Of a stretch of DNA of 64,000 bases, positions 1,981 to 36,405 are shown in pieces. Every line of letters begins with the position of its first letter. Position 1 is the first letter of the stretch. The notes under the pieces are model-generated. The model searched no databases, was not told where the DNA came from, and saw nothing but the letters and a program-made list of their open reading frames with translations. A program made the translations under genes and the position numbers. Source of the stretch: Escherichia phage ECO340P1; sequence record OP172791, one strand, 5' to 3'.

Positions 1981-2571
1981 ATGCATACCGAGAGAGACTT
2001 GCAACTCTTGTGGTGGGAAGTGATGCAGGAAATAAAAGAAGATTTTCCTGTTTACTACAACATGTTACGTGAAGCAGGATATAAAGCTTGTGTTAGAAAC
2101 AAAGTGAATAACTCTTTCGGTTGGTGCAACTACCGAGATAAAATTGTTGTTGTAAATTGGCACTTGCATAAGAACTCCACAAGAGATATGATCGTGGATA
2201 CAATGAAGCACGAAATTGCTCATGCTATTGATGGTTGTATGGGTAAGTTTAGTAGGCACGGTGCTCATTGGCAAAAACTGGCAGCAGAATTAGGGGCTAA
2301 TCCTAAAGCCACTTCCAAAGAGCCGTTGAACCACGAATATAAATATGTTCTTGTTCTGGTAGATAGGTTTGCGACAAGATGTGTTAGAGGTTATAATCGT
2401 AAACCTAATCGCATGTACCCAGGTAAGCAACCTAATATGTGGTTGAAATCAGATAAAGAAGGGACCGAAGGAAAATTATGGTTGTATAAATGGGACGATT
2501 GGGTTAAAGTAGCTAAAGAGTACGGTGTTTCACCATATATAAGAGATGCAGAAGAGGAGAATGAAGAATGA
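1981..2571 (+). CDS. SprT-like zinc metallopeptidase domain protein
   Basis: HEIAHAIDGCMGKFSRHGAHW: HExxH plus downstream His and Trp, as in the SprT/WLM family. Confidence 0.5.
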   Translation: MHTERDLQLLWWEVMQEIKEDFPVYYNMLREAGYKACVRNKVNNSFGWCNYRDKIVVVNWHLHKNSTRDMIVDTMKHEIAHAIDGCMGKFSRHGAHWQKLAAELGANPKATSKEPLNHEYKYVLVLVDRFATRCVRGYNRKPNRMYPGKQPNMWLKSDKEGTEGKLWLYKWDDWVKVAKEYGVSPYIRDAEEENEE

Positions 2572-3680
2572 CAAGTCCATTTTTAAAAGCAGCTACTGGT
2601 GGTCAGAAGAAGCCTGAAATGAGCGTATTTGCTGCAACAACAGATGCAAGTAAATCTGTATTCGCTCCAAGCGTGTTAGATGCCAGTCCTGTTTATGCAC
2701 CAGCGGCACCGCAAGAAGTTCCAGTTTTGCCTTCTATGACCCGACAAGAGATTGAAGAGATTGGGGCAGAGGCAGGAACAACCTTGCGTTCCTTGAATGC
2801 CGAGGTGTTAAAACATCAACGTAGTAATCAAGGCGATCAGATGAGTGAACGACTCACAGCTTTGATTAAACAGGCAAAACAACTTGATCCAAACTCTATT
2901 AAACAAAGCAAGGGTATTACTAAACTCATTAAAAAAGTTATGGGTATGAAAGAAGACCTGTTCGGGGAGTTTGATAATGTTAATAACCGTATTGAAGAGT
3001 TGGTAAAGAACCTTCAAATGGATATTCGCAAAGAAGAAGATTCCTTGGTATATCTTGAAAAGCTGCATCAAGCTATTGGACAATATGCTGCAAGTTTGAA
3101 CCGAGATATGCAGCTTCTAACAGCAACCTATGAAAAAGAAGAACAAGCTTTGGCTGCTCTTCCAGAAGATGCAGTAGAACAGCGACAAGTGATCCGAGAT
3201 ACTTTGGATCTTCTGGAGATTCGTATTGCAGATTTAAAAGCATTGCGCCTACTGTGTGTCCAAATGGGACCGCGTGTACAAGGTATGCAAAAAGTTTCTG
3301 CAAGCTTAATGCGATCTGCGCGTAACATAGTAAATAATGTTATTCCTGCTTACTCTGCTAACTTCTCAATGTATATCGAGAGCTTACGTCAAATGAAAGC
3401 AGCAGAGACGCAGAATAACGTTCTTGATGAATTTAACCTGGCAATTAAACTGGGTAGCGATCTTGCCACACAGAATCAGATCGAAGCAGCAGCACTGGCT
3501 AACCGTCAAGTGTTGGATATTGAAACTCTGCGTCACGATCAGGAAAACTTGGTTAAGATGCTGGAAGAAACTAACCGCATCAATACGGAAGCCCGTGCTG
3601 CTCGTGTTGATTATATTAATGAAGTTCAATCTCTGGAAGACGGGATGGTAGCTGCTGTGAAACGAGGGCTTGGTAAATGA
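2568..3680 (+). CDS. TelA-like (toxic anion resistance) coiled-coil protein
   Basis: 370 aa, heptad-rich and charged, size and composition typical of the TelA/KlaB family; sits between TerC and TerD-family genes. Confidence 0.4.
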   Translation: MTSPFLKAATGGQKKPEMSVFAATTDASKSVFAPSVLDASPVYAPAAPQEVPVLPSMTRQEIEEIGAEAGTTLRSLNAEVLKHQRSNQGDQMSERLTALIKQAKQLDPNSIKQSKGITKLIKKVMGMKEDLFGEFDNVNNRIEELVKNLQMDIRKEEDSLVYLEKLHQAIGQYAASLNRDMQLLTATYEKEEQALAALPEDAVEQRQVIRDTLDLLEIRIADLKALRLLCVQMGPRVQGMQKVSASLMRSARNIVNNVIPAYSANFSMYIESLRQMKAAETQNNVLDEFNLAIKLGSDLATQNQIEAAALANRQVLDIETLRHDQENLVKMLEETNRINTEARAARVDYINEVQSLEDGMVAAVKRGLGK

Positions 3681-5084: not shown

Positions 5085-5879
5085 ATGTCCGAGAAAATCA
5101 GCCTGAAAAAACGTCAAGAAAACCTTGCTTTCTCTCTGAAAAAGAATAAGAACCTGAATGAAGGTAAGATTGTTCTTCGTGTAGCATGTGCTCTAGATAT
5201 TTCTGGTAGTATGCATGGTCTATATTCTAGTGGGGTAGTGAGTGATTTTGTAGGTAAACTGCTTCCTTTTGGTATGCTGTTCGACGATAATCAACAAATT
5301 GATATGTGGGCCTTCAATACGAGTTCCCAAGAGCTTACTCCAGCAACAGCAGACGTTTACGATGACTATGTTGGTAAATGTATGCGTAATGTTCGTATCG
5401 GAGGTGGAACAAATTACGCCCCTGTAATGGCAGATATCTACGATGAGTATTTTGGCACTGTTACCAAATATATTACCACTAAACAAGTGGTACAAGAGGA
5501 GGCTCCAAAGAAAGGCTTCTTTAATCGTCTGCTTGGTAAAACTGAAACAGTGTCTGTAGAGCGTGAAAAAGTTGTAGCTGTATCTGAACCAGGTGCTGAC
5601 GTTACCCCTGGTGTTGTATTCTTCCAGACGGATGGTGAGAATGGTGATCCTAGTGCTGTTCGTCGTCTTATTGAAGAGAATAAGAATAAACCTATTTATT
5701 GGTTCATGGTTGGCGTTGGTAATGAGAAGTTTGGGTTCCTGAAAGAACTGGCAAATGCTTATGATAATGTTGGTTTTATTGGCATTAAAGATTTAGACTT
5801 GACAGATTCAGAGCTTTATGACAAACTCTTATCTGAGGAGTTCGGAGAGTGGGTTGTTAAAGTAGGTGCTAAAAAATGA
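5085..5879 (+). CDS. vWA domain protein (vWA-TerF/TerY-like)
   Basis: TerD-like KISLKK N-terminus followed by a MIDAS motif DISGSM and a vWA-like fold pattern. Confidence 0.6.
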   Translation: MSEKISLKKRQENLAFSLKKNKNLNEGKIVLRVACALDISGSMHGLYSSGVVSDFVGKLLPFGMLFDDNQQIDMWAFNTSSQELTPATADVYDDYVGKCMRNVRIGGGTNYAPVMADIYDEYFGTVTKYITTKQVVQEEAPKKGFFNRLLGKTETVSVEREKVVAVSEPGADVTPGVVFFQTDGENGDPSAVRRLIEENKNKPIYWFMVGVGNEKFGFLKELANAYDNVGFIGIKDLDLTDSELYDKLLSEEFGEWVVKVGAKK

Positions 5880-6124
5880 TCGACGAGCTTGCCTCTCAAG
5901 TCATAGAAAATTATTGGCGCGAGAGAGAAGCTTTCATTATGCGCAGTCTCAAAGAGTATTTCATTGGGACTGTGCGAATGGAAGATATTGTAAGTAGAGT
6001 GGAGATTCATGTATGGCCCGATTATGAAGAATGGGTTGACAAAGAAAATGAAAATGCTATAATTCTTCGTATATACAAACCGGAGATAACATTAGGAGGA
6101 AGAAGTGTTAAACTTCGAAATTGA
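5876..6124 (+). CDS. hypothetical protein
   Basis: 82-aa ORF, translationally coupled to the upstream gene. Confidence 0.4.
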   Translation: MIDELASQVIENYWREREAFIMRSLKEYFIGTVRMEDIVSRVEIHVWPDYEEWVDKENENAIILRIYKPEITLGGRSVKLRN

Positions 6125-6374
6125 TGAGCAAAAAGTAAATAAACGATGCCTTACCATTAAAGATTTGGATGTAGGAGATACTTTCGTCTATGAAAATGCA
6201 TTTGACGAAAATGGTTTAGACCTTAGTGAAATCATTGTTTATTTAAAAGTAGATGATGGGGAAAATGATTATTCTGCTGTAGAACTAAACCATCATGCAC
6301 AATTAGTATCAATCCAAAACACATCTAAGCTTTTGGAAGTAGAATTGACTGTAACTGGTATTACACTTAAATAA
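6105..6374 (+). CDS. small conserved protein, paralog of 4805-5083
   Basis: GTG start after AGGAGGA; same conserved motifs as the 4805 ORF. Confidence 0.5.
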   Translation: MLNFEIDEQKVNKRCLTIKDLDVGDTFVYENAFDENGLDLSEIIVYLKVDDGENDYSAVELNHHAQLVSIQNTSKLLEVELTVTGITLK

Positions 6375-6389
6375 TAGAGGAGACAAAAG

Positions 6390-6992
6390 ATGACTGATAA
6401 AATTTCCCTGAAAAAAGGCTCTAGCGAAAAAATTTCCCTGAAGAAAGTTGCTCCGGCTCTGAAAGAACTGCGCCTGGAATTCTCTTGGAAATCTGATTCT
6501 AAACTGGATCTGGATGTAAGTGCACTGGTTTGTCGTCACAATGCCGCTGGTAATCCTGAAATGCTGTCTGCACGTCATCTGGTTTGCTATGCTAACAAGT
6601 TTGATCCTGAACGTTCTACCTTCGCTGGTGACGATGTTCGTGATGGAACTGGCAGCATGGAGCAGATTGATATTACTCTGGCTAAAATCTCTCCTGATGC
6701 ACAAGAGATTGCCTTTGTTCTGACCATTGATGATGATACAGGTCTGAAACGTTTTGGTCATGCTTCTGAAGGTATGCTTAAAATCTTCGACTCCGAGCGC
6801 AATGTGGAAATTCTGGATTTTGACTTCCTGGCTCCTGAAGTAGCTGGCAACACAATCTGCCACGTGGCTTCCTTGGTTCGTGAAGATGGGGAATGGAAGC
6901 TGAAAGCATATGGTGTAGGTAAAGCTGGTCTGGATATTTGTGATGTGGTGATGGCCTTCGGTGGTAAAAAAGAATGGTATGAATGTCCATAA
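6390..6992 (+). CDS. terD: TerD-family protein (TerD/TerE/TerZ-like)
   Basis: KISLKKG...KISLKK repeat, LDLDVSALV, GDDVRDGTG and EWKLKAYGVGKAG match the TerD-domain signature regions. Confidence 0.8.
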   Translation: MTDKISLKKGSSEKISLKKVAPALKELRLEFSWKSDSKLDLDVSALVCRHNAAGNPEMLSARHLVCYANKFDPERSTFAGDDVRDGTGSMEQIDITLAKISPDAQEIAFVLTIDDDTGLKRFGHASEGMLKIFDSERNVEILDFDFLAPEVAGNTICHVASLVREDGEWKLKAYGVGKAGLDICDVVMAFGGKKEWYECP

Positions 6993-7010
6993 TAATTAAC
7001 AAATGATTTT

Positions 7011-7030
7011 GAGGGGGAGAAATCCCCCTC
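7011..7030 (+). terminator. GC-rich hairpin after the TerD gene
   Basis: Perfect 8-bp stem GAGGGGGA / TCCCCCTC with GAAA loop; weak U-tract. Confidence 0.5.
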
Positions 7031-7059
7031 TTGCAATAAAGCCTCTATCGTGTTATACT
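7031..7059 (+). promoter_or_regulatory. sigma70-like promoter (TTGCAA-N17-TATACT)
   Basis: -35 TTGCAA at 7031-7036, 17-nt spacer, -10 TATACT at 7054-7059, upstream of the 7092 gene. Confidence 0.55.
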
Positions 7060-7091
7060 AGAAATTCGTTAACTTAAAAAGGAGGCAAAAT

Positions 7092-7613
7092 TTGCTGATA
7101 AAAAACTTTGTAACAGTTGCGTTACTATCCTTAACTGCTTTTACATTTACACCTGTTGTGGCGAAAGCCGAAGCTGCAAACGTAAAAACCGCTAAAGTAG
7201 TTCACAAATGTACAAAGCAATATAATGATAAAATTCTATTAGCTTGTGCAATTTACGCAGAAGGTCGCGGTCTGGGTAAAAAAGGAATGAATGCCGTTGG
7301 GAATGTGGTAATCAACAGAAGAAATGATACCTACTTCCCTAACACAGTCAGAGGAGTCTTGTTCCAGAAAGGACAATTCTCATATGCGAAAACTTTTAAC
7401 GTAACAGAGAAAGATAAGTGGCAGGAAGCAAAAGCAATAGCGGAACGTTTACTTTATTTAGAGAAACATTTTCCTGAATTGCGGTCTGTTTTAGATGTTA
7501 CTAAAGGTGCTCTATACTTCAAGAAACGGAATATAAGGACAAACTGGGAACGTGATATGCGTCTTGTTTATCGAGATAAAGTGCATGGTTTCTATCTACC
7601 AAAGGGGAGTTAA
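7092..7613 (+). CDS. secreted cell wall hydrolase (SleB/Hydrolase_2-like), candidate endolysin
   Basis: TTG start after AAGGAGG; N-terminal signal peptide ...VVAKA/EA; motifs AIYAEGRGLG...VGNVVINR...FPNT...QFSY typical of SleB-family hydrolases. Confidence 0.6.
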   Translation: MLIKNFVTVALLSLTAFTFTPVVAKAEAANVKTAKVVHKCTKQYNDKILLACAIYAEGRGLGKKGMNAVGNVVINRRNDTYFPNTVRGVLFQKGQFSYAKTFNVTEKDKWQEAKAIAERLLYLEKHFPELRSVLDVTKGALYFKKRNIRTNWERDMRLVYRDKVHGFYLPKGS

Positions 7614-7614
7614 A

Positions 7615-7899
7615 ATGCAAGAAGATAATACTGTTGTTGTAGCAAGTTACCTGGTTGTCGGTCTTACCGAAGAGGACGTATACTACACCCGTAAGCATTT
7701 GGAAGCATACGCTACTTTGTTTATGGAAGATGAAAAGGATGTAGATAAATATAGCATTGATATGATCAACGACAGTATTTATCCTTGTATGGTTCTTAAA
7801 GTAGATGCTGTGTTGTGGGAGCGTTTTGCAAGGACTCATGATGCTGTAGAATGCTCCGCAGTAATGTCTCAAAACAACATTTTAGGGGAGATTCATTGA
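7615..7899 (+). CDS. hypothetical protein
   Basis: Internal ATG at 7615 with AGGGGAG RBS chosen over the upstream ORF-track start. Confidence 0.4.
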   Translation: MQEDNTVVVASYLVVGLTEEDVYYTRKHLEAYATLFMEDEKDVDKYSIDMINDSIYPCMVLKVDAVLWERFARTHDAVECSAVMSQNNILGEIH

Positions 7900-19130: not shown

Positions 19131-20018
19131 ATGTCCGTAATTAATACTGAAACTGATCGTAAAGGCAAAACCGTAACTTATGCAACTGGTATCGTAGACT
19201 ACGTTAAACTGGATAAATTCGCTGAACCTAAAACTTTTCATTGGGAAGGAAAAACGATTGTTTCAACTCACCGAGCTTCTCTTGTTCTGAAAGAGAAAGG
19301 TGCTAAACCAGATGAGAAAGGTGTTTGGATTTCTCTTGGTGACATTGAACTGAAAGAAGGTTATGAAAACCTGCAAGTCAAAGAAGGTGATAATTGGATC
19401 ACTATTGAAAAAGGTGTAGAAGTAAGTATTGATATTGATCGCGTTGATAATAAAGGCGGTAAAACTTACTACAATACTAAAAAATCTCGTATTACAGTAT
19501 TGTCTACCGATGGTGTTCAGAAGTCTAACAAATCTTCTGGCAATAAAGGTTCCAACGATGCTGCTCCTAAGCAATCCTATAAAAAACGTGATACTGTAGG
19601 TCTGGAAACTGGTCACGCAGTAAATGGTGCACTGGAACTGATTCGTAATGGTGTTAAAGGCGATGCTTTCGATATCGCTGGGGTTGTTCAATCTGCAACT
19701 GTCACGCTGAAATCGGAAATTGCTGAATCTCGTGGCGTTGATATTAATGATTATGATCTTGGGGCATCTGTTGGTCACGCTATTCTTAATGCTTGTAAAG
19801 ACCATACCATTAAGACTGTATCTGTAGAAGATCTGATTGACTCTGCTCGTAAAGTTCTAGCTCTGTCTGATAAAGTTGCTGCTGCCATTCGTGGTTCCGC
19901 AGAACAACCTAAGAAAGAAGAGAAGAAAGAAGTTAAAAAGCCTGAACCACAACCAGAACCAACTCCAAGCAATCAAGAAGAACCTCCAATGGACTTCGAT
20001 GATGATATTCCATTCTGA
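19131..20018 (+). CDS. single-stranded DNA-binding protein with acidic C-terminal tail
   Basis: C-terminus MDFDDDIPF is identical in pattern to the bacterial SSB protein-interaction tail; preceded by a Pro/Glu-rich linker. Confidence 0.6.
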   Translation: MSVINTETDRKGKTVTYATGIVDYVKLDKFAEPKTFHWEGKTIVSTHRASLVLKEKGAKPDEKGVWISLGDIELKEGYENLQVKEGDNWITIEKGVEVSIDIDRVDNKGGKTYYNTKKSRITVLSTDGVQKSNKSSGNKGSNDAAPKQSYKKRDTVGLETGHAVNGALELIRNGVKGDAFDIAGVVQSATVTLKSEIAESRGVDINDYDLGASVGHAILNACKDHTIKTVSVEDLIDSARKVLALSDKVAAAIRGSAEQPKKEEKKEVKKPEPQPEPTPSNQEEPPMDFDDDIPF

Positions 20019-20050
20019 TCTTATTGATTTATAAAGAGTTTTTATAAAAG

Positions 20051-20080
20051 AAAAGGGAACCTTTGCGGGTTCCCTTTTTT
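20051..20080. terminator. bidirectional Rho-independent terminator between convergent early and late blocks
   Basis: AAAA-GGGAACC-tttgcg-GGTTCCC-TTTTTT, with A-tract and T-tract flanks, between the SSB stop (20018) and the tail fibre stop (20082). Confidence 0.7.
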
Positions 20081-20081
20081 A

Positions 20082-22757
20082 TTAGTCGTAATATTTCAAA
20101 CCTGTAATGAACTTCGATCCCCAATCCGCACTTGCGGCGGTGAACGTCAACATCCAAGTTGTAGCTGTACCAGTGAAGACCTCTCGTTGCACAGTACCAT
20201 CAGTGTGGTAAATGTCCACGCCAGTATGTCCATTCTTAGGAATAGTGAAGGTAACAGCACTGGTAGTGTCTCGTGCATAAGAACAAACAAATGGTGTCCC
20301 CGCCCAAACTGGATTTGTCATATCACCCATCTCAAGCTGTGGAACCCAAGCAATAAGACCTGCCGTACCATCTCCTGCGAAAGTGTCTGATCCACTTGCA
20401 TTCAAAGCTATAATCTCATAGGTTATAGATGCTTGTTTGGCAACTGTCACTTTGTGTAGAATTACACGATACCAACCGTTCCCCATATCGATTATGTTTG
20501 CATCTGCACCTGTAAATGTTCCAGCTACAAGATCATAAGTCCCTTCGTTAATCTCATCTCCTGAAGTCAATTTGAGTTTCACTTTAGTGATCCCGTCTGG
20601 CTTCAAGAATACGGATGCCGCCCAGTGCTTACCTGCTGTAATATCAGAAGCTGTATTCACTGCTGATAAAATATGTTGTCCTGAAGTTGTAGAAGGTGTT
20701 AACTTGTAAGTGTTAGCCGTAGTTCCAACCGGAGAGTTGATTGTTGATGCTGTGACTGTCAAGTTCGTCTTCAACCACGGGGAAGCTGTTGTCAAGTTAT
20801 TGTTGATAAAGATATGTGTACGGTTGGCTGCTACAACACGTCTACCTTGTGGAGTTGTACCAACATATTCTAAAGGTGCTACGGGAGCAGAACTCTCTGT
20901 AGGTACAAGGATATCTCCAGAAGCCCTGGCATAACGGTTACTCCTGTTGACCTTTACATCCGCCGGAATAGTTTCTTGCGTCAAATCATAGTCCATCACA
21001 ATGACCACAGCATTCACTGTGAGATAAGAACTATCTTCGGCAGTTACCACACCTTGATAAGTTGCTCTACAACCGATACGACAACCTCCATCAGCAACCG
21101 CTGTAATAACGCCTGTAACGGGGTCAACTGTTGCTACCGTAGGGTCATTAGAGAAATACTCAACAACCACACCAGGTAAGCTTGCTGCTCCTGTTGGCGT
21201 TATTTCTGCTACCATTGTTTGTGTTGTTCCTACATCCATCGCAGATAAGCTAGGAGTGTAAACGCTCAATGTTGAAGCATATCCTCCAGAGGTATCTGAT
21301 AAAGTTGTTCCTTCAGCGTTTAAGGCTGTCATACCTGCATCAAAACCACCTTCTGCATGGAAAGTCATTAAACCAGTAGATGATATTGTCATGTTTGCAG
21401 GGGCAGAAGAAGTGTATTTAATATTGAAAAGTTTACCTCCTTCTGGGCTAACAGAATGTGTCAACTGTTTAGTTCCACCTACAATACAAATTCCTAAAGA
21501 ATCTGTAGTTAAGCCAGTTGCCAGAATATCACCCGTAATCACGGAGCTTGCTATTGGTGTGAATTTATTATAGTTTAGACCACTATTGAACAGATACGAG
21601 GCTTTCCCATCTTTCCAAATACCGGAATAATACATATCCCCGTTATAAACGAAAAAGGTTCCTTGATAACCTAATTGGTTAGTAATATCCATATTCAGCG
21701 TATGAACGCTTGTGAGCTTGTTTATATCCCAGGAACCCACTCCTTCAGGTTTAACTGGTTTTCCCACTTGGAGTGGATCTCCGCTCGCAGAATCATACCC
21801 CAAACCTAAGTTTGCAGTGTAGTTCTTACCAATAGCCCACAAGGAATTGTTGATCCCAACGAAAAAAGAGTGGCGGCTTGGTGGAAATTTCCATGTTGAG
21901 AAACCTGCTGCAAAGGTATCCAGTTTAGTGTAGGTTGTTTCTGTATTAGACCTGACATATAAGTAGTTTACCGTGCCCGTACCACCGGAGGTATCTCCTA
22001 CAACTATTGTCTGGGAAACTGTATTGATGTAATCTTTGACATACACTGTTTCAGTAGCGGATATCGTGGCATTGACAAAAGCGGTTGTTGTGTTATTATT
22101 ACCTGCTAAACCTTTACTAGCTCCACAAACACGCAAGGTTCCCACATTGTTGACATAAGAGCATTGGTTGTAACCTGCATCAAAAGCAACTGCTGAACTT
22201 GTTATCTGACGAGGAGTAGAAACTTCGTTAGTAGTGCTTGCACCTAAACTACCTACTGTGTTTTGACCCGATCCATAAAGAACACCACTATTCATTAACC
22301 AGAGAGTATTGTTATACCCTCCTTTAACCTCTTTAAGATTGGCTAAAGAAATAGTCCCTGTTATTACAGATGGAAAGCTGGTCCAAGTAGTTACACATGC
22401 ATCCGTACCACCTGCTGCTATAGATCCTACCAACCCTGCTGTCAATCCTGAATATTGCCATCCCCCACTGTTAGTTTTAATAACAAAACAACGATCTGCG
22501 GTAAACACATCCGCTACTACAGTAGAAGCTAAGTGGAAATTATTGAATCGTGCACTACGAGTTCCATCTGCAATCTCACCAAAGAGGTTTGCGCCTTGAG
22601 TAAACAATCTACCATCATTAAGCAAAATTGCCAAACTGCTGTTAGAATTACCAGCGTTATCTGGGTAATCTAAAGTAATTACTTTTTTAACAATACCTGC
22701 TGGCAGAGGAACGACACCAGTGCTGGTCATAATAGTAAATATTGGAATTGGAAACAT
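20082..22757 (-). CDS. tail fibre / receptor-binding protein
   Basis: 891 aa, Gly/Thr/Ser/Asn-rich beta-type composition; last gene of the tail fibre block. Confidence 0.6.
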   Translation of the reverse strand: MFPIPIFTIMTSTGVVPLPAGIVKKVITLDYPDNAGNSNSSLAILLNDGRLFTQGANLFGEIADGTRSARFNNFHLASTVVADVFTADRCFVIKTNSGGWQYSGLTAGLVGSIAAGGTDACVTTWTSFPSVITGTISLANLKEVKGGYNNTLWLMNSGVLYGSGQNTVGSLGASTTNEVSTPRQITSSAVAFDAGYNQCSYVNNVGTLRVCGASKGLAGNNNTTTAFVNATISATETVYVKDYINTVSQTIVVGDTSGGTGTVNYLYVRSNTETTYTKLDTFAAGFSTWKFPPSRHSFFVGINNSLWAIGKNYTANLGLGYDSASGDPLQVGKPVKPEGVGSWDINKLTSVHTLNMDITNQLGYQGTFFVYNGDMYYSGIWKDGKASYLFNSGLNYNKFTPIASSVITGDILATGLTTDSLGICIVGGTKQLTHSVSPEGGKLFNIKYTSSAPANMTISSTGLMTFHAEGGFDAGMTALNAEGTTLSDTSGGYASTLSVYTPSLSAMDVGTTQTMVAEITPTGAASLPGVVVEYFSNDPTVATVDPVTGVITAVADGGCRIGCRATYQGVVTAEDSSYLTVNAVVIVMDYDLTQETIPADVKVNRSNRYARASGDILVPTESSAPVAPLEYVGTTPQGRRVVAANRTHIFINNNLTTASPWLKTNLTVTASTINSPVGTTANTYKLTPSTTSGQHILSAVNTASDITAGKHWAASVFLKPDGITKVKLKLTSGDEINEGTYDLVAGTFTGADANIIDMGNGWYRVILHKVTVAKQASITYEIIALNASGSDTFAGDGTAGLIAWVPQLEMGDMTNPVWAGTPFVCSYARDTTSAVTFTIPKNGHTGVDIYHTDGTVQREVFTGTATTWMLTFTAASADWGSKFITGLKYYD

Positions 22758-22767
22758 TTAAACCCTC

Positions 22768-22795
22768 CATAAAAAGAAAGCCCCTTTCGGGGCTT
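22768..22795 (-). terminator. Rho-independent terminator after the collagen-like fibre gene
   Basis: Minus-strand hairpin AAGCCCC-gaaa-GGGGCTT followed by TTCTTTTTAT. Confidence 0.6.
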
Positions 22796-22798
22796 CTG

Positions 22799-24823
22799 TT
22801 ATCGTGTTACAACAACCATGTCCACGATATTACCCACACCAGGATACGTTAATTGCAAAATTGTTACTGCGTTAGCAGTAGTTGCTATTTCTGTATCATT
22901 CAGTGCTCCATAAGACGCATCTAGTGTAACCGTGTGTCCCGTTGTATCTTGAATCAAATAAATCATTGCTGAAAATGCTTTAGGTTTTGTAGATCCAGTG
23001 ACACCAGGCCATGCTCCAACTGTCAGAGCGTCAGTTACTGTAACAACATACATATTGGAAGTTCCAGAAGGAGTCCAAGATGCTCCAGAGTTGGCAGTAG
23101 TTGTTTCAAGTTCCATGAAACCTGCTGTAACTTTAGTTGGTGTTATAGCTTCTGTAGGATCTGATCCTGATATTTCGATCCAGTTCCCATCAGAACGACC
23201 ATACGTCAAGCCGTCTTGAGGTGCTTCTGGTATACTAGGAAGAGTTCCTATAAGTGTCCACGTAGAAGAATCTGTTTTCTTGAACACTGCTCCAGTGGTA
23301 GTATTGAAGGCGTAATCATTGATAACACCATCTCCTGCGACTGGATTAGTTGTTGCTACAAACCACTGTGCGCCGTCCTTACCGTTGGTCCCATCTGTAC
23401 CGTTGGTTCCGTTTGTTCCAGGATCACCCTTATCTCCTTTATCCCCTTTTTCACCTTTGTCGCCTTTAATACTTCCCATGTCAACAAAAGATGCGGAATT
23501 GGTGTCTTGATCGTAGGTATAGATATAAAGATTACTAGTATCTTCAGTTAAGTAGGCATCACCATAGTTATTATAAACAGGGAGAGCTTCACTGTTCGGA
23601 ACATGACCTTTAGCTGTAATTGATGTTCCTCCAAGACTGCCAACATTCATCCATTCTGTAGCATCTTGAACCCAAACATACAAATCATTATTAATTTTAT
23701 ATGCATCACCTACTTCTCCAGTAGGAGGAAGTTCAGCTTCACTGTTCAGAACCCCGATAATCTCTAAGCCTGATCCTGTTGCACCCACTGGTCCTTGTGG
23801 ACCTAGTTCACCTTGTGGACCTCGCTCTCCTTGATCACCCTTGTCTCCTTTTGGACCTTTAAGTGAGTCAATAAAATCTACTTCTGTCCCTTCATTACCA
23901 GCATCCAGCCAACTTTGATATGCAGATTTCCCTTCATCTCCATCTGTTCCATCAAGACCGTCTTTACCTGCCTCACCTTGTGGACCTTGAGGACCAACAA
24001 TATTACCCATGTTGACCCAAGCTGTCCCATTAGAGACATAAAGATTACCATTGATAGAATAAGCTTGGCTTACGTTTTCAGAGTTAGGTTGTGGTAAGTT
24101 ACTTGTAGAAGGTAAATCCCCACGATAATCAAAACCGTTGGCGTTAACACCAGGTGCTCCCTGTGGCCCTGTAGGACCAACATCACCTTTATCACCTTTT
24201 ATAGAGGTAAGAAAGTCATAAACAGATCCTGTATTACCATCTGCCAACCATACCTCATAAGCTGATTTCCCTTCTGGTCCAAGAGAAGAAATAAGTTTCC
24301 AAACAGAACCATCCCAAGCATAGATTACATCGCCTACGATATAACCGTCCCCTGCAACGTTACCTGTAGATGGTAGCTCACTAGTGCTTGCTAATGATCC
24401 TTTAATATTAAGTTGAGCACCAGTATCTCCTTTCAAAGAAGCAAGCCATTGTGCTTCTGTTCCAACAAAACCATTATCAAGTGCGATCTGATAAGCTGAT
24501 TTACCAGCTTCAGGTATTGTTTCCGACAGATCATCGATCTGTTGCTGCACTGCCGTAAACTTGGCATTGATAATTGCTATATCATCAGCGGTCCCAACAT
24601 TTTGCCATGCAAGGGAAGAAATACCACCTGTGGTGGCTGGTGTAGAGTTTGCTGGAACTACTTTAGGAAAAGTTCCTTTCCATTGGTAATAATTCCCTTC
24701 TGCTGCTAACAGCAAAACTTCACGGGAATTACGTAATGTAAAACCTGCCTCAAAACTGCGACGTTTTCGATAAGTAGCTTCTACCAGATCGGCTATCGCA
24801 CTATTAGGTCTTGTTAAATTCAT
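22799..24823 (-). CDS. tail fibre protein with collagen-like Gly-X-Y repeats
   Basis: Several runs such as GDKGDVGPTGPQGAPG and KGDKGEKGDKGDKGDPGTNGTNGTDG, interspersed with repeated GKSAY modules. Confidence 0.65.
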   Translation of the reverse strand: MNLTRPNSAIADLVEATYRKRRSFEAGFTLRNSREVLLLAAEGNYYQWKGTFPKVVPANSTPATTGGISSLAWQNVGTADDIAIINAKFTAVQQQIDDLSETIPEAGKSAYQIALDNGFVGTEAQWLASLKGDTGAQLNIKGSLASTSELPSTGNVAGDGYIVGDVIYAWDGSVWKLISSLGPEGKSAYEVWLADGNTGSVYDFLTSIKGDKGDVGPTGPQGAPGVNANGFDYRGDLPSTSNLPQPNSENVSQAYSINGNLYVSNGTAWVNMGNIVGPQGPQGEAGKDGLDGTDGDEGKSAYQSWLDAGNEGTEVDFIDSLKGPKGDKGDQGERGPQGELGPQGPVGATGSGLEIIGVLNSEAELPPTGEVGDAYKINNDLYVWVQDATEWMNVGSLGGTSITAKGHVPNSEALPVYNNYGDAYLTEDTSNLYIYTYDQDTNSASFVDMGSIKGDKGEKGDKGDKGDPGTNGTNGTDGTNGKDGAQWFVATTNPVAGDGVINDYAFNTTTGAVFKKTDSSTWTLIGTLPSIPEAPQDGLTYGRSDGNWIEISGSDPTEAITPTKVTAGFMELETTTANSGASWTPSGTSNMYVVTVTDALTVGAWPGVTGSTKPKAFSAMIYLIQDTTGHTVTLDASYGALNDTEIATTANAVTILQLTYPGVGNIVDMVVVTR

Positions 24824-24857
24824 TTATCTCTCCTATCATTAGACCATTCTATTGGAA

Positions 24858-24882
24858 GAAGAGGGGGAATCCCCCCCTCTAT
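24858..24882 (-). terminator. GC-rich hairpin after the tailspike gene
   Basis: AGAGGGGG / CCCCCTCT stem; weak T-tract. Confidence 0.45.
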
Positions 24883-24886
24883 TCCA

Positions 24887-27800
24887 TTAGGTTGTTGGCA
24901 CATCTACTACTGGCGTTGGGCGAATAACTGCAGTATTACCTACAGAAACATTACTGGAATCATTAGGTATGGTTTTAATTCTAACTCCAGCACTTGTAGG
25001 CGTTACAATTGGATCTGCAATGTCTATTTTAACTGGGTTAGTCCACGTATCATTATCTTGATAAGGTGCACGAGTAATAACTGTGTCCAAATCTGCTCCA
25101 CCTACGCCAGCACCAGGAATACGGATACGTGTCCCTGCTGACAGAGGGTAATGATACAACCAAGAAGCATTTGTTGCTGTCCCGTTAGGAGTCAAGTTCT
25201 GTGTCAGGAAGGTATCTCCTGCCTGTGTAGCTCGAATACCGAAAGCTGGGATATCTGGAATATATGCCCCACTTGTTGTTACAAGGAAGAACGTATTATC
25301 CGCCTTGACTATCATATCACCTTTGTCAAACTCTTTCCCTGTTGGGAAATGCATTCCATCAATGTTTCGACTAGGATTAGGCTCTAAGTAATAAACTTTG
25401 CCCGTTGTCCCTACAATAGCTCCAATACCACCTGCGATATTGGTATACATATTAGCTTCAACATTACAGTTGACACGATGAATATCCGAGTAACGGCAAC
25501 GGCTCCACTGTGGACGACCAGTAACCATCGTCTTGCCATCTGGGTAACAGTTTACGTTAACCATTTCAAGAACAGATTTTTCTCTACGGAAGAATCCATC
25601 ATAAAATGTCCCTGGACCAGATTCAGGTTGACCAACACAATCGAAGATATTACAGGTGATGTTAGACATTGAAAGCCAAGAAGCTATACCGAACAACTGC
25701 AATGCAGCGCAACGAATATTTTCAAAGCTAACTCTGTTTTCATAACCTGGCCCAGCGGAAACTCCCGCAAAAACACGCCCAGTTTTGGTGTGAATGTTAC
25801 GAACAGAATAGTTAAAACATGGATTTGAAGGTCTGCCCTGTGCCGGAACTACCGGATTACCCTCTTCGTCCAGAACTGCGTTAGTTCCCCACTCCAAATA
25901 AATCATACGGATATTACTTGCAAGTGTGCTACCGTCTGTTTTAGGCTCTCCATAAACACCGTCAATCGTAAAATCTTTACTTCCGTACATTACAACTGCG
26001 CCAGTTGCCAAACCTGTCCCAACAGATACAGTCTGATCTGGATCGCCATGAATGTTTTCGATAGAGATATTACGACCAACTTCTACGTGGACAATCTGAC
26101 GACAACGTTTTGCAAAAACGTTACGAATTGTAATATTCTTGCAATATTGATCATCAGGGATTCCGTAACCATATGGTCCTTTACCAGCTACACCGATACC
26201 GATACCCCAGTTGGACAGAGGAATAGGAGCGTTAGTCCCATCGATATTAGACAGGTAAATATTCTCAATCACACAACCATCGTCATAATGTTTATTGATG
26301 ACGTTCAGTTCTATTGCATCACCTTGCATGTCCATGAAGGTAAGGTTACGGAAGACACCACGTGTTACTGGTTCCCCTGTTCCTTGTTGAAGGATGCCAT
26401 ACAACCCGTTTTTAAAAGTACAGTTATCAATTTCAAAAGTACCTGATATTGGGTTGCCTTGGAATACCAAGCTACCAACTTGACCTGCGCGAGGAGCACC
26501 GTCCCACAAACAATCGAACATGCGCACAGCACCACCCCAATACATAACACGAGAGTTACGGAAAGTTGTGCCTTCTACTGTAGCATTTTGCACACGATAG
26601 TCGCGTTGACCACGGAACACACCCCCACGCAAAGTGATACCTTGAATATCAAAAGAGCTTGTCGTGAAAGTCATATCGCAACCGTAAGCATCGAGAATCT
26701 TGCTTTTCGAAGATTTTGCTGCTAACAGTGCCGCTTGGAAAGCTGCTTCTGGTGTGGTATAGGTAGTTGTATTGTTAGCAAATTCGGACAAGTAGACAAC
26801 ATCGAATAAATCGTTGTATGTTCCACCACGAGGGGTTAACAGTCCTTCTGTATTAGTCAGAACCCATGCATTTGGACCTAATCCTCCGCTCGTCTCCAAG
26901 GTATCGGAAGCCAAAATACTTTTTGGTAAACTTCCAGCCCAACGATAACGACCAGCGCCACGTCCAATCGTCTGATTTTTAGCTGTCAGAGTTACATTAT
27001 TACCAAAGCTTGTAGGCAAATGAACAAACTGTCCACGCTCAACAGCCAGTGCAGAAAGGTCTACAGATCCTCCAGAATAAGTCATTACTCCAGAAACAGA
27101 CAAGGATGTTAAAGTGCCTGTAATGTTAGGAGGTAATGTGTAGGAAGACTGCGCTACCGGATCATACAGAGCTTTAATCCCTGTTAACGATTGACCTGCT
27201 GTTGCGTAAGCCACCTCATCATCTAACAAACCATACTTACGAGCAATAGTTTGCAGAGGGACTTTATCCATGCTTTCTGTTAGTTCTTCCGTTTTTGTTT
27301 CTAAACTAACAAGACGGTTCTCTAGATTAGGATCTGTATCTGCTGAAGCTACGATTTTGCCAATATAAGCAAAAAGTTTGTTTGGCAGTCCTGTTGCAGG
27401 ATCGTGTCCCAAAGGTTCAGATAAGATGATCTTACTATCTTCTATACGGAAAGCTTCCCCCAGAACCTGAATAACACCATTGATCGTAACAATAGCACTA
27501 TCAAAGATGTAAGGAGGACTAATTACTGTTTCATAACCAGTTGCACCAGAATATACCCAAGGGGTGACTTCTGTTGCCAATTGTTCTGTCTTCAGTCCCC
27601 ACAATACCCAGTTGTTATCTCCTACTGGAGTCCCTTGCATAGGGATTGGGTTAACCAATGTAGCGTTAGGGGCATAGTAATAACCGCTCAATACTCCATT
27701 CTGGAAATAACGAAGTTGGTTAAAAACTGTTTCGTTTGTGCCTTGCGCCCAATCCAATGGGCTTTTAAAGAAAAAGTTGTCAACAAGGGCTTTTCTCAGG

Positions 27801-27940
27801 GTTGGTATCAACCCTGATTCTGTTTCAATACTCTCTGTAGCACTTCCATTAATAACATCATGGAGTTGGTTAGATGAGAAAATAACCAGGTCTACGCCCT
27901 GTTCGAGAGACGTTGCTGGATATGTTGGGAATGTTGCCAT
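24887..27940 (-). CDS. tailspike protein, probable right-handed beta-helix depolymerase
   Basis: 1017 aa; central region has periodic N/G/V/I-rich repeats (NITIRNV, NISIENI, NIRMIYLE) typical of parallel beta-helix tailspikes. Confidence 0.55.
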   Translation of the reverse strand: MATFPTYPATSLEQGVDLVIFSSNQLHDVINGSATESIETESGLIPTLRKALVDNFFFKSPLDWAQGTNETVFNQLRYFQNGVLSGYYYAPNATLVNPIPMQGTPVGDNNWVLWGLKTEQLATEVTPWVYSGATGYETVISPPYIFDSAIVTINGVIQVLGEAFRIEDSKIILSEPLGHDPATGLPNKLFAYIGKIVASADTDPNLENRLVSLETKTEELTESMDKVPLQTIARKYGLLDDEVAYATAGQSLTGIKALYDPVAQSSYTLPPNITGTLTSLSVSGVMTYSGGSVDLSALAVERGQFVHLPTSFGNNVTLTAKNQTIGRGAGRYRWAGSLPKSILASDTLETSGGLGPNAWVLTNTEGLLTPRGGTYNDLFDVVYLSEFANNTTTYTTPEAAFQAALLAAKSSKSKILDAYGCDMTFTTSSFDIQGITLRGGVFRGQRDYRVQNATVEGTTFRNSRVMYWGGAVRMFDCLWDGAPRAGQVGSLVFQGNPISGTFEIDNCTFKNGLYGILQQGTGEPVTRGVFRNLTFMDMQGDAIELNVINKHYDDGCVIENIYLSNIDGTNAPIPLSNWGIGIGVAGKGPYGYGIPDDQYCKNITIRNVFAKRCRQIVHVEVGRNISIENIHGDPDQTVSVGTGLATGAVVMYGSKDFTIDGVYGEPKTDGSTLASNIRMIYLEWGTNAVLDEEGNPVVPAQGRPSNPCFNYSVRNIHTKTGRVFAGVSAGPGYENRVSFENIRCAALQLFGIASWLSMSNITCNIFDCVGQPESGPGTFYDGFFRREKSVLEMVNVNCYPDGKTMVTGRPQWSRCRYSDIHRVNCNVEANMYTNIAGGIGAIVGTTGKVYYLEPNPSRNIDGMHFPTGKEFDKGDMIVKADNTFFLVTTSGAYIPDIPAFGIRATQAGDTFLTQNLTPNGTATNASWLYHYPLSAGTRIRIPGAGVGGADLDTVITRAPYQDNDTWTNPVKIDIADPIVTPTSAGVRIKTIPNDSSNVSVGNTAVIRPTPVVDVPTT

Positions 27941-27943
27941 TAA

Positions 27944-28279
27944 TTACCCCTTATTCTGTGTACGTTTAACTATGTCATCTAGCATCATTTGGATAGTCGC
28001 ATTCTTGAGGTCCATAATCTTTTCAATTTTTTGCTCAAGGGTGTTATTATTTGCCATTAATGTAGAGTTAATTTGATTTAGCATCTGGGTAAGTTCGGCT
28101 TTAGTTGCATAAGTTGATTCAACAAAGACCAACTTCTTCTCTAGCTCTCGACTTTTCTCCTCCATTTCCTCAAGATCAGAGCCGAATTTATCCATTTTTT
28201 GTTTGAAAAAGAACCAGATGACTCCGATTAAAGGGATTATTGCATCCTTTGCAAGTCCCCATGCTTCTTGAAATTCCAT
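27944..28279 (-). CDS. small membrane-anchored coiled-coil protein
   Basis: N-terminal hydrophobic segment AIIPLIGVIWFFF followed by a charged coiled coil. Confidence 0.35.
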   Translation of the reverse strand: MEFQEAWGLAKDAIIPLIGVIWFFFKQKMDKFGSDLEEMEEKSRELEKKLVFVESTYATKAELTQMLNQINSTLMANNNTLEQKIEKIMDLKNATIQMMLDDIVKRTQNKG

Positions 28280-28288
28280 AGTGATCCC

Positions 28289-28834
28289 TTATTCTGTCGG
28301 TAATGTAGGCCAATCTATAGCGTAAGGATAGTCTTTTTGAAGCGGAACACGATTTAGTTTAACTACATAAACTTGAAGATTTTTAAGATAAGCTAATTCG
28401 TCTTCAGTAGCCATTTCTAAATCTTTAGCATACTGTAAAGGTGTTATAAGTGCTACCGCTGTTTCTTGTAAAGAGCGAATTTTTGCACTAGCTTGTGTCA
28501 TCAACTCTTCACGGGAATACTCTTTATCCTTAAGAGTTAAGGTTTCTAAATCCAGAACCTTGTTCCTAATATCCTCAAAAGTATCTATATTAAAGTCTAC
28601 TTGTGCTATAGAAAGATCTTCAGGGCAAAGTAGTGTAGGATCAGTATTCCAAAACACAATACGATTTTGATCATCAAAAACGACTTTCATTTTATCGTTA
28701 TTGAATTCTGTGCTACGTAAATCATACCAATCGTAACCTTGATCGCAACGAAGAAAAAGAATGTTCTCTGCTTCTACCAATTCTTTTAGTTCAGGGTCTT
28801 CAGGAATATATTTTTTAAAGTTTGTAAATATCAT
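28289..28834 (-). CDS. tail fibre assembly protein (Tfa family chaperone)
   Basis: C-terminal region APLQYAKDLEMATEDE...YVVKLNRV...IDWPTLP parallels the lambda Tfa C-terminus (APLQDAADLEIATKEE...LLNRV...IEWPAVP, recalled from memory). Confidence 0.8.
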   Translation of the reverse strand: MIFTNFKKYIPEDPELKELVEAENILFLRCDQGYDWYDLRSTEFNNDKMKVVFDDQNRIVFWNTDPTLLCPEDLSIAQVDFNIDTFEDIRNKVLDLETLTLKDKEYSREELMTQASAKIRSLQETAVALITPLQYAKDLEMATEDELAYLKNLQVYVVKLNRVPLQKDYPYAIDWPTLPTE

Positions 28835-29896
28835 TTAGCCTCCAATATCGTACCAGTTTCCGTTAACGTTGCGCTGGAGGCGTTTGAAGTAAACCCCACC
28901 GATGTTATCCGCAGAGCTACGTCCTGTTTCCTGTACGATAATACCAGAAAGAACATAACCAGAAGAACAGATATAAGTCCAAGAAACCTCGTTCCCTGGT
29001 GGATAATACACACCTTGGCTAGTATAACGAATATCTCTTACAAAGGTTCCGTTAGCATAATTGTAGTTATTTGTAATCTGACTTTGATGATTACTTTCTA
29101 CATTGTTTATACGGGAAGAAAGGTTGCTGTTAACATTATTCAAGTTATTTTGAACAGTGTTAATATTCGTCTGCAATGTGTTCTGAAGGGAAGTCAAACG
29201 AGAGTTCAGATAATCTAAACGAACTAAAGCATTTCCGTTAGAAGTATCTTGTCCACTGTTTGATCTTGGATTATCTATTAGAACATAACCTGCATCATAT
29301 AAACGAACACCTGCCGATACACTACCTGTGCTAGGATTTCTACGATAAATATAAAGCTGACCTCCGCTTTGATACTCGGCAGAAATCTCACCATTTGTTT
29401 GTCCTGCAAAGTTTTTGAAGAACAGTGTTGCAGGATCTGTTGTGGAAGTACCGTTAACATAAACATCGCCACCATAAATAGCACCACCCGCATCACGTTT
29501 TACCAGCACGTTTGGTGTTACTGTTGAACTAGTGGCATCTGTAATGTTTGCCGACAAGTGATTATGACTGTTATCTTGAACCTGGATAGATAAAGTAACT
29601 TCTTTGTTACCGTTCCAAGTGGCCTCACCAGTAGCATCACCTGCCATTGTAATCTTAGTTCCCACTAAAGGCAAGTAGGTATTAGGTAAAGTTGGAAGAA
29701 AATCATCCACCAAATAGCGAATCCATAAACCGATATTATTAAGAATCCAGTTCATTTCTTCGCAAGTCATGATTTGACCATAATCCATACCAACTGTGCG
29801 GATGGTTTCTTTAGGTCTAATTTTGTTTGTGTTTAAAGTTCCTGGGAGCGTTACAGTTTGTGTAGCCCAGTCAGGATAATATATTGGCTTCGCCAT
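28835..29896 (-). CDS. tail fibre protein
   Basis: 353 aa, N/S/T/Q-rich, immediately upstream of the Tfa gene. Confidence 0.55.
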   Translation of the reverse strand: MAKPIYYPDWATQTVTLPGTLNTNKIRPKETIRTVGMDYGQIMTCEEMNWILNNIGLWIRYLVDDFLPTLPNTYLPLVGTKITMAGDATGEATWNGNKEVTLSIQVQDNSHNHLSANITDATSSTVTPNVLVKRDAGGAIYGGDVYVNGTSTTDPATLFFKNFAGQTNGEISAEYQSGGQLYIYRRNPSTGSVSAGVRLYDAGYVLIDNPRSNSGQDTSNGNALVRLDYLNSRLTSLQNTLQTNINTVQNNLNNVNSNLSSRINNVESNHQSQITNNYNYANGTFVRDIRYTSQGVYYPPGNEVSWTYICSSGYVLSGIIVQETGRSSADNIGGVYFKRLQRNVNGNWYDIGG

Positions 29897-29905
29897 TTAA
29901 ACTCC

Positions 29906-30535
29906 TTAATCTATTTGCTTGAGAAGCGTACACATGCGTCCTGTTTCATCCCCAGTAGATTCCATGTACAGGGAACCTAAACCACCAATACCATGAGGCG
30001 GTTTGGTAGCATAATAAGAACTAAAACCAAAAGCTGATCCTGCTTTTGCTCCAAGACGGTAGCTACTAATAATAGGGAAAACACTTAGCAACTGCTCTAA
30101 AGCTTGATCAGATTGAAGACACAGGTTGTAGAAAAACACATCAAAGGTTTTATTCAAACCTACGTAAGTATTAAGCGTTTCACGCTCTGTTCCTGTGAAA
30201 CGGGCGAAGATATCAATTATGTCGCCACGAGTCCCCGATGAGGCTACGCGGTAAGCCCTGATTTTTAATATTGTTCTATACTCTTCATCATCAGAGCCAT
30301 TACGTTCGATCCCCATTTCTTCCCCTAGAATATCTAGGTATTTGCCTGTGGCTGTAGAGATCAAGCGGTGTTTAGCAAGATAGATCATTGCCTGATCTAT
30401 CTTTTGCTTTTCACTGGATACGATGTAGAGGAGCTTGACAATGTTAGGAGAAGATTTAAAATCTTCAATCAGAAGGTTTTTAACATCTTCATTGATACTG
30501 GCCCAAGTTGTTACATGGTCAACACTCACTGCCAT
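29906..30535 (-). CDS. putative baseplate protein
   Basis: 209-aa ORF between baseplate J-like and fibre genes; assignment by position only. Confidence 0.35.
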   Translation of the reverse strand: MAVSVDHVTTWASINEDVKNLLIEDFKSSPNIVKLLYIVSSEKQKIDQAMIYLAKHRLISTATGKYLDILGEEMGIERNGSDDEEYRTILKIRAYRVASSGTRGDIIDIFARFTGTERETLNTYVGLNKTFDVFFYNLCLQSDQALEQLLSVFPIISSYRLGAKAGSAFGFSSYYATKPPHGIGGLGSLYMESTGDETGRMCTLLKQID

Positions 30536-30537
30536 TT

Positions 30538-32025: not shown

Positions 32026-32288
32026 TAGTCATCCTCTTTGGTAGATTGTGATCTGCCCCAACGTAAATCAATAAGATTTTTCATGAGGCGAGAAGGGGTT
32101 ATCATGAAAACAAAAGCCCAACCCATCCATTCAGGAATTTCTTTTTCTATTCCTAAAAAGATAAACATGCCTGTCATAACCGACATGCCTACAGCGTTCC
32201 AGACTTTCGTAGAGCTTACCCCGTTGCCGGGGTAAGTGCAGAACATTCCACGAATAAATTTTTTAAAACCGTTTTTCTCTTTAGCCAT
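32025..32288 (-). CDS. small two-TM membrane protein (holin-like)
   Basis: 87 aa with two hydrophobic segments and a charged C-terminus RWGRSQSTKEDD. Confidence 0.3.
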   Translation of the reverse strand: MAKEKNGFKKFIRGMFCTYPGNGVSSTKVWNAVGMSVMTGMFIFLGIEKEIPEWMGWAFVFMITPSRLMKNLIDLRWGRSQSTKEDD

Positions 32289-32309
32289 GAGTACCTCTAA
32301 GTGAGATAT

Positions 32310-32337
32310 AAAGATTGAAATACCGCCTAAGCGGTAT
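32310..32337 (-). terminator. hairpin with T-tract just upstream of the holin-like gene
   Basis: Minus-strand ATACCGC-ttag-GCGGTAT followed by TTTCAATCTT. Confidence 0.4.
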
Positions 32338-32624
32338 TATTTACTTTCTAGGGTTGCAAGCCTTTCTTCAAGAGCTTTTAACTTTTTACGTTGATAAGCC
32401 ATCTCAATAAAAAACATTTGGTCAGCGCGGATACCCCATCGCGATCCTGCTGGAGTTATTTCGATAGTTTCTACAACATCTTCTACGATTGTTACTGGAT
32501 TACCTTACAACCTTCCCCTTCATCAAATAAAGGGATTTCTTTTTGTCCCGTAACAACACTATCGTACATAACAGGGTATTCATCATAACACAGAAAAGCA
32601 TACTTACAATCTTAGTTATTTTAT

Positions 32625-34235: not shown

Positions 34236-34243
34236 TTTTACTC

Positions 34244-36397: not shown

Positions 36398-36405
36398 TTT
36401 ACCCC

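Follow-up and report, generated by a model that had tools for sequence, protein, structure and literature searches.

According to published work, lysis genes are usually dispersed in the Stephanstirmvirinae and in rV5-like phages. A Phapecoctavirus genome announcement described two lytic proteins, one with a Phage_lysozyme and the other with a Hydrolase_2 domain, and a second publication on the subfamily reported two hydrolases, no adjacent holin and separate spanin genes. In the rV5 paper the PF00959 protein was named the 'obvious lysin', with a separate holin 'as in phage T4', while the SKA64 paper claimed a single Hydrolase_2 endolysin. The catalytic glutamate of SleB is reported to be essential for lytic transglycosylase activity. 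Cwh from Aeromonas phage ASG01 combines a signal peptide with a hydrolase-2 domain, and its induction lyses E. coli in the absence of a holin or any other phage gene; this lysis was abolished by the substitutions C34A, P68A, V57A and V74A and reduced by E42A and others. The CB7 paper describes a signal peptide in SleB-like homologs across the Vequintavirinae, and toxicity to E. coli (CB7_83). In Gram-negative Zymomonas, a SleB homolog acts in murein remodelling and stress resilience.

Phage ECO340P1 is a phAPEC8-like Phapecoctavirus of the Stephanstirmvirinae with a genome of about 150 kb. We analysed a stretch of 64,000 nucleotides from it (record OP172791), here called the window, which covers ~43% of the genome. 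The region is 99.7–99.8% identical to Escherichia phages ESCO37, REC and Mt1B1_P17, and databases and the literature already contain the gene treated here and its annotation, as well as the arrangement with two hydrolases and the scattering of the lysis genes. Several near-identical genomes have also been deposited as Campylobacter, Acinetobacter or Klebsiella phages (MG065650.1, OP562383.1, MH252123.1), host labels that look doubtful. When window positions ~20000–36500 were set against 57288–71543 of NC_052662.1 (Mt1B1_P17), the offset shifted by ~1.6 kb across the tail-fibre/baseplate region, which indicates indels or replacements in receptor-binding genes, for example the ORF at 32625–34235.

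The hydrolase gene and its catalytic domain

The ORF at 7092–7613 has its next in-frame Met at residue 66, within the catalytic domain, so only the TTG start spans both the leader and the active site (features are collected in Table 1). In a profile search the product matched Pfam Hydrolase_2 (PF07486) with E = 1.3e-17 and 64.6 bits against a cut-off of 27, over profile positions 3–100 of 100; it also matched PHROG 938, 'endolysin'. This is the cell-wall hydrolase domain that an earlier note on this DNA had read from the letters, and on whose presence it had let its claim depend. A sequence search for solved relatives returned the SleB catalytic domains 4f55 and 4fet only. The same two structures were the sole significant PDB matches (probability 1.0, target TM 0.72–0.75) of an AlphaFold model, which was built on 50 homologs and has a mean pLDDT of 87.7, being confident from about residue 31.

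Table 1. Positions of the hydrolase gene, its signals and the spanin genes in the window
Feature	Position	Strand	Details
GC-rich hairpin GAGGGGGA-GAAA-TCCCCCTC, between the TerD and hydrolase genes	7011..7030	+	without T-run
Candidate sigma70-type promoter TTGCAA-17-TATACT, extended -10 TG	7031..7059	+	directly after the hairpin
Shine-Dalgarno AAGGAGG	7079..7085	+	6 nt ahead of the TTG start; from sequence
SleB/CwlJ-type (Hydrolase_2) predicted peptidoglycan-cleaving enzyme gene	7092..7613	+	173 aa, TTG start
Predicted cleavable Sec signal peptide, residues 1-26	7092..7169	+	cleavage AKA↓E; alternative AEA↓A after residue 28
Conserved inverted repeat, arms 7131-7154 and 7172-7195	7131..7195	.	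within the leader-coding region
Codons of the sole two cysteines, Cys40 (7209-7211) and Cys52 (7245-7247)	7209..7247	+	putative disulfide
Codon of Glu57, predicted catalytic glutamate, YAEGRG motif	7260..7262	+	aligns with the Glu of SleB YGESRG
o-spanin (Rz1-like) lipoprotein	57567..57911	-	lipobox LMMTG↓C; PHROG 1267 'Rz-like spanin', 9e-21
i-spanin (Rz-like)	57802..58194	-	N-terminal TMD and coiled coil; PHROG 4297 'Rz-like spanin', 3e-35

Glu57 was invariant in 50/50 homologs, and across this set, which reaches down to ~30% identity, Arg76 was the only other invariant residue. Both cysteines were invariant in 14 close homologs and were found together in 35 of the 50 wider homologs; this conservation fits an oxidising compartment and suggests a periplasmic Cys40–Cys52 disulfide. 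The protein is not an equivalog of SleB itself (51.6 bits against the TIGR02869 cut-off of 236.5), and a Pfam scan returned the catalytic domain alone, with no N-terminal peptidoglycan-binding domain. Its membership of the Hydrolase_2 / SleB-CwlJ superfamily is solid, as profile, fold and conserved glutamate all agree. Lytic-transglycosylase chemistry is predicted for the enzyme by homology with SleB. SleB requires the muramic-delta-lactam of the spore cortex, and because E. coli murein has no muramic-delta-lactam, the substrate chemistry of SleB is not simply transferable.

The leader and the expression signals

The leader begins with M-L-I-K, continues through an uncharged core (F6–T20) to Pro21 and ends in V-V-A-K-A↓E. 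It was assigned by sequence rules and hydropathy: K4 provides a basic n-region, a hydrophobic h-region follows, P21 is a helix breaker and A24-K-A26↓E27 is a suitable cleavage site, while the cleaved leaders of PhoA and OmpA have a similar mean hydropathy and a similarly long uncharged run. The residues at the cleavage site differ among the homologs aligned, but all keep small residues at −3 and −1 with a charged residue after them, if in shifting registers (AQA↓E, GIA↓E, AKA↓A, ALA↓A; in more distant homologs SLA↓K, VQA↓K, AHA↓K, VVA↓A). Of 150 representative relatives from a library of 1.8 billion proteins, 120 have an N-terminal hydrophobic leader when a simple criterion of hydropathy is applied. 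In the AlphaFold model residues 1–30 are not packed against the domain and have low pLDDT, with an isolated helix at 7–17. Among homologs down to 61% identity, 12 of the 26 leader positions are invariant, including all of LLSLTAFTFTP. The hallmarks of a SAR domain were not found in the leader, whose core has no Gly and 3 Ala and whose AxA site is conserved. A paper on near-identical phages detected no signal peptides, whereas the CB7 and ASG01 papers reported one for their homologs. On these features we consider a cleavable Sec leader likely, with good confidence, and the Sec-type signal peptide proposed in the earlier note fits them throughout, from n- and h-regions to Pro, AxA site and PhoA/OmpA-like hydropathy.

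The signals ahead of the gene were compared in 11 Stephanstirmvirinae-type homologs, down to 61% protein identity. The intergenic hairpin is kept in place in all 11, where its stem sequences vary in ways compatible with pairing; a terminator scan did not call it, and it is probably a transcript boundary. The promoter elements, −35 TTGCnA and TGnTAnAnT, were kept in position in 11/11 of these diverged homologs, as were a GGAGGC element and the TTG start. The rare TTG occurs in every one of the Stephanstirmvirinae-type homologs (11/11, L004–L014), and a Vequintavirus homolog (L005:2495) starts with GTG. These starts hint that inefficient translation of a toxic product has been selected for.

In all contexts examined, TelA, vWA-TerF and TerD genes lie upstream, and small ORFs, glycosyltransferases and a primase-helicase downstream; in Vequintavirus the SleB-like gene is directly upstream of rIIA/rIIB. 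'Early region' may be an apt label for the locus, judged from these neighbours and the sigma70-like promoter. The T4 late-promoter motif TATAAATA was rejected as a classifier of timing, as it was not enriched (8 matches against 4.9 expected), and because sigma70-like sites are present on both strands, promoter motifs cannot tell early from late genes.

The Ter genes upstream form a tellurite-resistance-like set on the plus strand, with 'tellurite resistance' (TelA-like) at 2568–3680, vWA-TerF at 5085–5879 and TerD at 6390–6992; TerC lies outside the window (in a relative, L001:35920–36894), and the set is conserved in diverged relatives. Within this block a perfect consensus sigma70 promoter (6036–6063, +; TTGACA-16-TATAAT, extended -10 TG, 12/12) precedes a small ORF at 6105–6374. 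Elsewhere in the early block, a 170-aa ORF (857–1369, +) has an internal lipoprotein-like leader (MKKLALILIGCIFLTAC) and may encode an exported phage protein.

The leader-coding part of the hydrolase gene is conserved beyond its amino acids. In codons 2–43 the codon itself was invariant in 11 of 22 columns with an invariant amino acid, against 4 of 47 in the remaining codons (Fisher p = 2.4e-4, six homologs), and third-position identity drops along the gene from 0.7–0.8 to 0.3–0.5. The frozen bases, in the region 7092–7220, make up an inverted repeat. On the antisense strand this gives a long hairpin (−43.2 kcal/mol, z = −4.0), whereas the sense fold is unremarkable (z = +0.6); the antisense hairpin is more stable because several pairs that are G·U there are A·C in the sense strand. 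Antisense z-scores for 85-nt segments lay between −2.3 and −5.9 in 10 of 11 homologs, and the most diverged homolog keeps the helix through two changes that affect both sides. The arms pair in 90.9% of cells compared with 31–45% in slid controls, and three pairs have changes on both sides (8/500 shuffles). The covariation score did not reach significance (120/500), and pairing in the outer stem breaks down with no compensating changes.

Several sources for the frozen sites were tried and rejected. For a sense-strand RNA structure there was a weak alignment fold, no covariation and the z-score of +0.6 given above; an overlapping ORF, as in CB7, is precluded by stops in every other frame of every homolog; and the motif TTTACATTTACA does not recur in the genome beyond expectation (15 matches, 15.9 expected). 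No Rfam family matched across 6800–7800, no conserved antisense promoter was found, and the hairpin is absent from the Vequintavirus SleB-like gene. The inverted repeat may be a regulatory element of a toxic gene, a site that acts at the DNA level, or partly a by-product of the encoded peptide. It is conceivable, though we would call it quite unlikely, that the TTG start, private promoter, frozen sites and antisense-favoured hairpin together amount to post-transcriptional control that throttles or time-gates a toxic, Sec-exported lytic transglycosylase. Such control might be exerted by a cis-antisense RNA or by a structure within the mRNA or the DNA, and, were it real, the Stephanstirmvirinae would gain a regulated, holin-independent second route of wall degradation beside a T4-type holin and lysozyme.

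Scattered lysis genes and the T4-type lysozyme

The earlier note had placed Rz/Rz1-like spanins about 50 kb from the hydrolase gene. The distance is 50.5 kb and both genes match spanin PHROGs. They form a two-component spanin pair, in which an i-spanin with a TMD and an o-spanin with a lipobox are encoded by overlapping genes: the o-spanin gene overlaps the 3' end of the i-spanin gene and adjoins the large terminase gene, upstream of it. The spanin survey from the Young laboratory already lists the phi92/phAPEC8 pair, and in CB7, rV5 and PVP-SE1 the spanins are likewise directly upstream of the large terminase gene. Just past the spanins, a cluster of 10 tRNA genes lies at 59060–60982 on the minus strand (Met x2, Ile, Pro, Gln, Gly, Thr, Asn, Ser, Arg).

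No holin or endolysin gene was found adjoining the spanins or the T4-type lysozyme described below. Nor does a holin gene adjoin the SleB-like gene, whose neighbours are TerD and small ORFs for soluble proteins, and which is not part of a canonical holin-endolysin-spanin cassette. Hydrolase and spanins occupy separate loci, just as the earlier note had it in calling the lysis functions dispersed. A re-scan beside the spanins, the place where that note would have looked for a canonical endolysin to overturn its reading, found none there, but this was too narrow a test, because the canonical endolysin lies elsewhere. A gene annotated as 'hol-like chemotaxis' in a relative was rejected as a holin, since its product is an acidic coiled coil that lacks a TMD. 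In the baseplate cluster, an 87-aa ORF (32025–32288, −) encodes two TMDs or hydrophobic segments and a charged C-terminus, resembling a class II holin; PHROG 1322 labels its product 'membrane protein' only. It is a plausible candidate for the missing holin, judged by this topology.

In the complete genome of Mt1B1_P17, a 166-aa Phage_lysozyme gene without a leader lies at 118858–119358 (PF00959, 5e-11). The N-terminus of its product carries what we take to be the Glu/Asp/Thr motif of T4 lysozyme (gpe). The lysozyme of the relatives is 47% identical to the T-even gene e product over 99% of its length, and it recurs at 99.4–100% identity in ESCO37, REC, phAPEC8 and about 60 other records. The numbers of phage records with the SleB-like gene and with the lysozyme match, at 64 and 64 for at least 95% identity and 67 and 68 for 60–90%. 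As the closest relatives carry a soluble T4-type lysozyme, the SleB-like enzyme is a second hydrolase and not the sole candidate endolysin. From gene content, it is a conserved second, predicted hydrolase beside a canonical soluble endolysin.

Inside the 64-kb window no peptidoglycan hydrolase other than the SleB-like protein is recognisable: the ten virion ORFs scanned there (nine of 336–1017 aa and a 137-aa baseplate plug) have no hydrolase or lysozyme domain. Genome-wide, the claim of an only hydrolase fails, given the relatives' lysozyme. It is an artefact of the window edge, because the lysozyme lies outside the window, and the premise that the hydrolase is the sole endolysin candidate fails when genomes 99.7–99.8% identical carry the T4-type gene. 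The SKA64 paper made the same error for a different reason: in record OM362897.1 the T4-type lysozyme gene (30692–31192) is annotated 'tyrosine 2,3-aminomutase', and this mislabelling accounts for the single endolysin claimed. An annotation trap is corrected in this way, in which a partial genome or a mislabelled lysozyme record turns a SleB-like protein into the 'only endolysin'.

Function and comparison with known systems

The explanation we favour, with moderate confidence, is that 7092–7613 encodes an accessory, periplasm-targeted, murein-cleaving enzyme of SleB/CwlJ fold that works beside a T4 gpe-type lysozyme. The domain, fold, conserved Glu, leader features, conserved expression signals and co-occurrence of the lysozyme are its observed basis; from them we infer export, cleavage, chemistry, timing and a contribution to lysis. 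The gene would form its own transcription unit, with a host-type sigma70 extended -10 promoter and a predicted transcript start near 7066, within a block of replication, Ter and glycosyltransferase genes, and transcription by the host polymerase, if it is used as the promoter suggests, would not be restricted to late times. Translation from the conserved TTG start would be inefficient and deliberately weak. The product would be exported by Sec and cut by signal peptidase I after Ala26, and the mature domain (~17 kDa, very basic, with a pI of about 10) would fold in the periplasm, probably with the Cys40–Cys52 disulfide. There Glu57 would cut glycan strands, by lytic-transglycosylase chemistry if SleB homology is a guide, and the sacculus would be weakened or helped to dissolve independently of the holin. 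The holin-dependent T4-type lysozyme would supply the holin-gated burst. Against this explanation stand the ASG01 substitution E42A, which only reduced lysis, and the paper on near-identical phages, which detected no signal peptide.

A holin-independent endolysin or an early wall remodeller, as the earlier note had suggested, is a legitimate hypothesis by analogy with lysis by ASG01 Cwh and toxicity of the CB7 homolog. In its strongest form the SleB-like enzyme would be the principal endolysin, exported by Sec and restrained until membrane depolarisation, as Lys44 is, and the T4-type lysozyme would be secondary. RefSeq and PHROGs do label it 'endolysin', the ASG01 homolog lyses E. coli by itself, and the T4-type lysozyme has no neighbouring holin, the 'hol-like' protein having no TMD. 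We nevertheless regard this role as improbable: a full-length gpe ortholog has been retained (47% identity, 99% of length), the equivalent PF00959 lysozyme is the 'obvious lysin' of rV5, two-TMD holin-like ORFs such as 32025–32288 exist, and a weak TTG start and a place among replication genes are atypical of the main late lysis enzyme. Wall remodelling during infection, not lysis, has a small but appreciable chance of being the function, whether in cell enlargement, as a superinfection barrier or in envelope stress together with the Ter-like genes. It would suit the location in a Ter / glycosyltransferase / replication block, the host-type promoter, the position of the Vequintavirus gene directly upstream of rIIA/rIIB and the part played by the Zymomonas homolog in murein remodelling and stress resilience. 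However, expressed homologs are lytic or toxic, and the gene has no conserved functional partner, because its neighbours vary by subfamily (Ter genes versus MoxR and rII).

The fate of the N-terminus separates a further possibility from the favoured one. Left uncleaved, it would act as a signal-anchor or SAR tether and keep the enzyme inactive until the membrane is collapsed by a holin or pinholin, or until a Mu-like releasin acts. An uncharged, Thr/Ser-rich stretch of 20 residues could serve in this way, and the unusual conservation of the leader (12/26 invariant) could mean a function beyond export. But much of that conservation is one of nucleotides and falls on the inverted repeat, so a constraint on the protein is not required to explain it. 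The core, with no Gly and few Ala, is unlike the SAR domains of P1 Lyz and R21, the helix-breaking Pro21 and the AxA-type site occur in all close homologs, and the hydropathy matches the cleaved PhoA and OmpA leaders; T4 RI, once called a SAR protein, was later reported to be cleaved. We judge an uncleaved anchor rather unlikely and keep to the exported, accessory enzyme.

The Stephanstirmvirinae and Vequintavirinae retain a SleB-like enzyme, predicted to be secreted, besides a canonical endolysin. Should it cause holin-independent lysis or wall softening, this would be relevant to the design of enzybiotics and to candidates for phage therapy from this group.

Among characterised proteins, ASG01 Cwh is similar: it too is small, has Hydrolase_2 as its single domain and a predicted Sec leader, and comes from a virulent myovirus. 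It differs in its distant sequence and in the placement of its cysteines (C34 and C72 instead of C40 and C52), and ASG01 was reported to have no other lysis genes, whereas the ECO340P1 type has a lysozyme and spanins. The Bacillus SleB and CwlJ enzymes share the catalytic fold and the aligned catalytic Glu, and CwlJ, like the protein here, is a bare single domain; here there is no peptidoglycan-binding domain and no YpeB partner, and the spore cortex is not a possible substrate. Lys44 of Oenococcus phage fOg44 and the SAR endolysins P1 Lyz and R21 share the concept of holin-independent export, but they belong to other catalytic families, the host of Lys44 is Gram-positive, and SAR domains are Gly/Ala-rich and uncleaved.

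The layout of phage T4, with e, t, rI and rz/rz1 scattered, is comparable, as the gpe ortholog, spanins and presumed holin are also at separate loci here; T4 is not known to have a secreted hydrolase of the SleB-like kind. SleB-like homologs occur in Pakpunavirus and T5-like phages too. The Vequintavirinae proteins (CB7_83, PVP-SE1 gp243, rV5 group, nomine gp63) are 33–37% identical and have in common with ours a predicted signal peptide, a non-ATG start (GTG in nomine), a separate canonical endolysin, spanins beside the large terminase gene and no lysis cassette. Their neighbours are a MoxR ATPase and rIIA/rIIB, not Ter genes, and the conserved inverted repeat is absent; in CB7 a small 2-TMD ORF overlaps the SleB-like gene, and ECO340P1 has none. 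In the Stephanstirmvirinae the same gene is found in phAPEC8, ESCO37, Mt1B1_P17 (gp098), phi92 (gp170) and BME3 ('SleB-like hydrolase'), variously annotated as cell wall hydrolase, endolysin or spore cortex-lytic enzyme. Amino-acid identity by tblastn is 97.7–98.8% for the Phapecoctavirus orthologs listed and about 74% for phi92, and the place between TerD and the glycosyltransferases, the TTG start and the promoter are shared. From these orthologs the locus shows essentially no difference, and ECO340P1 is another isolate of a sequenced species group.
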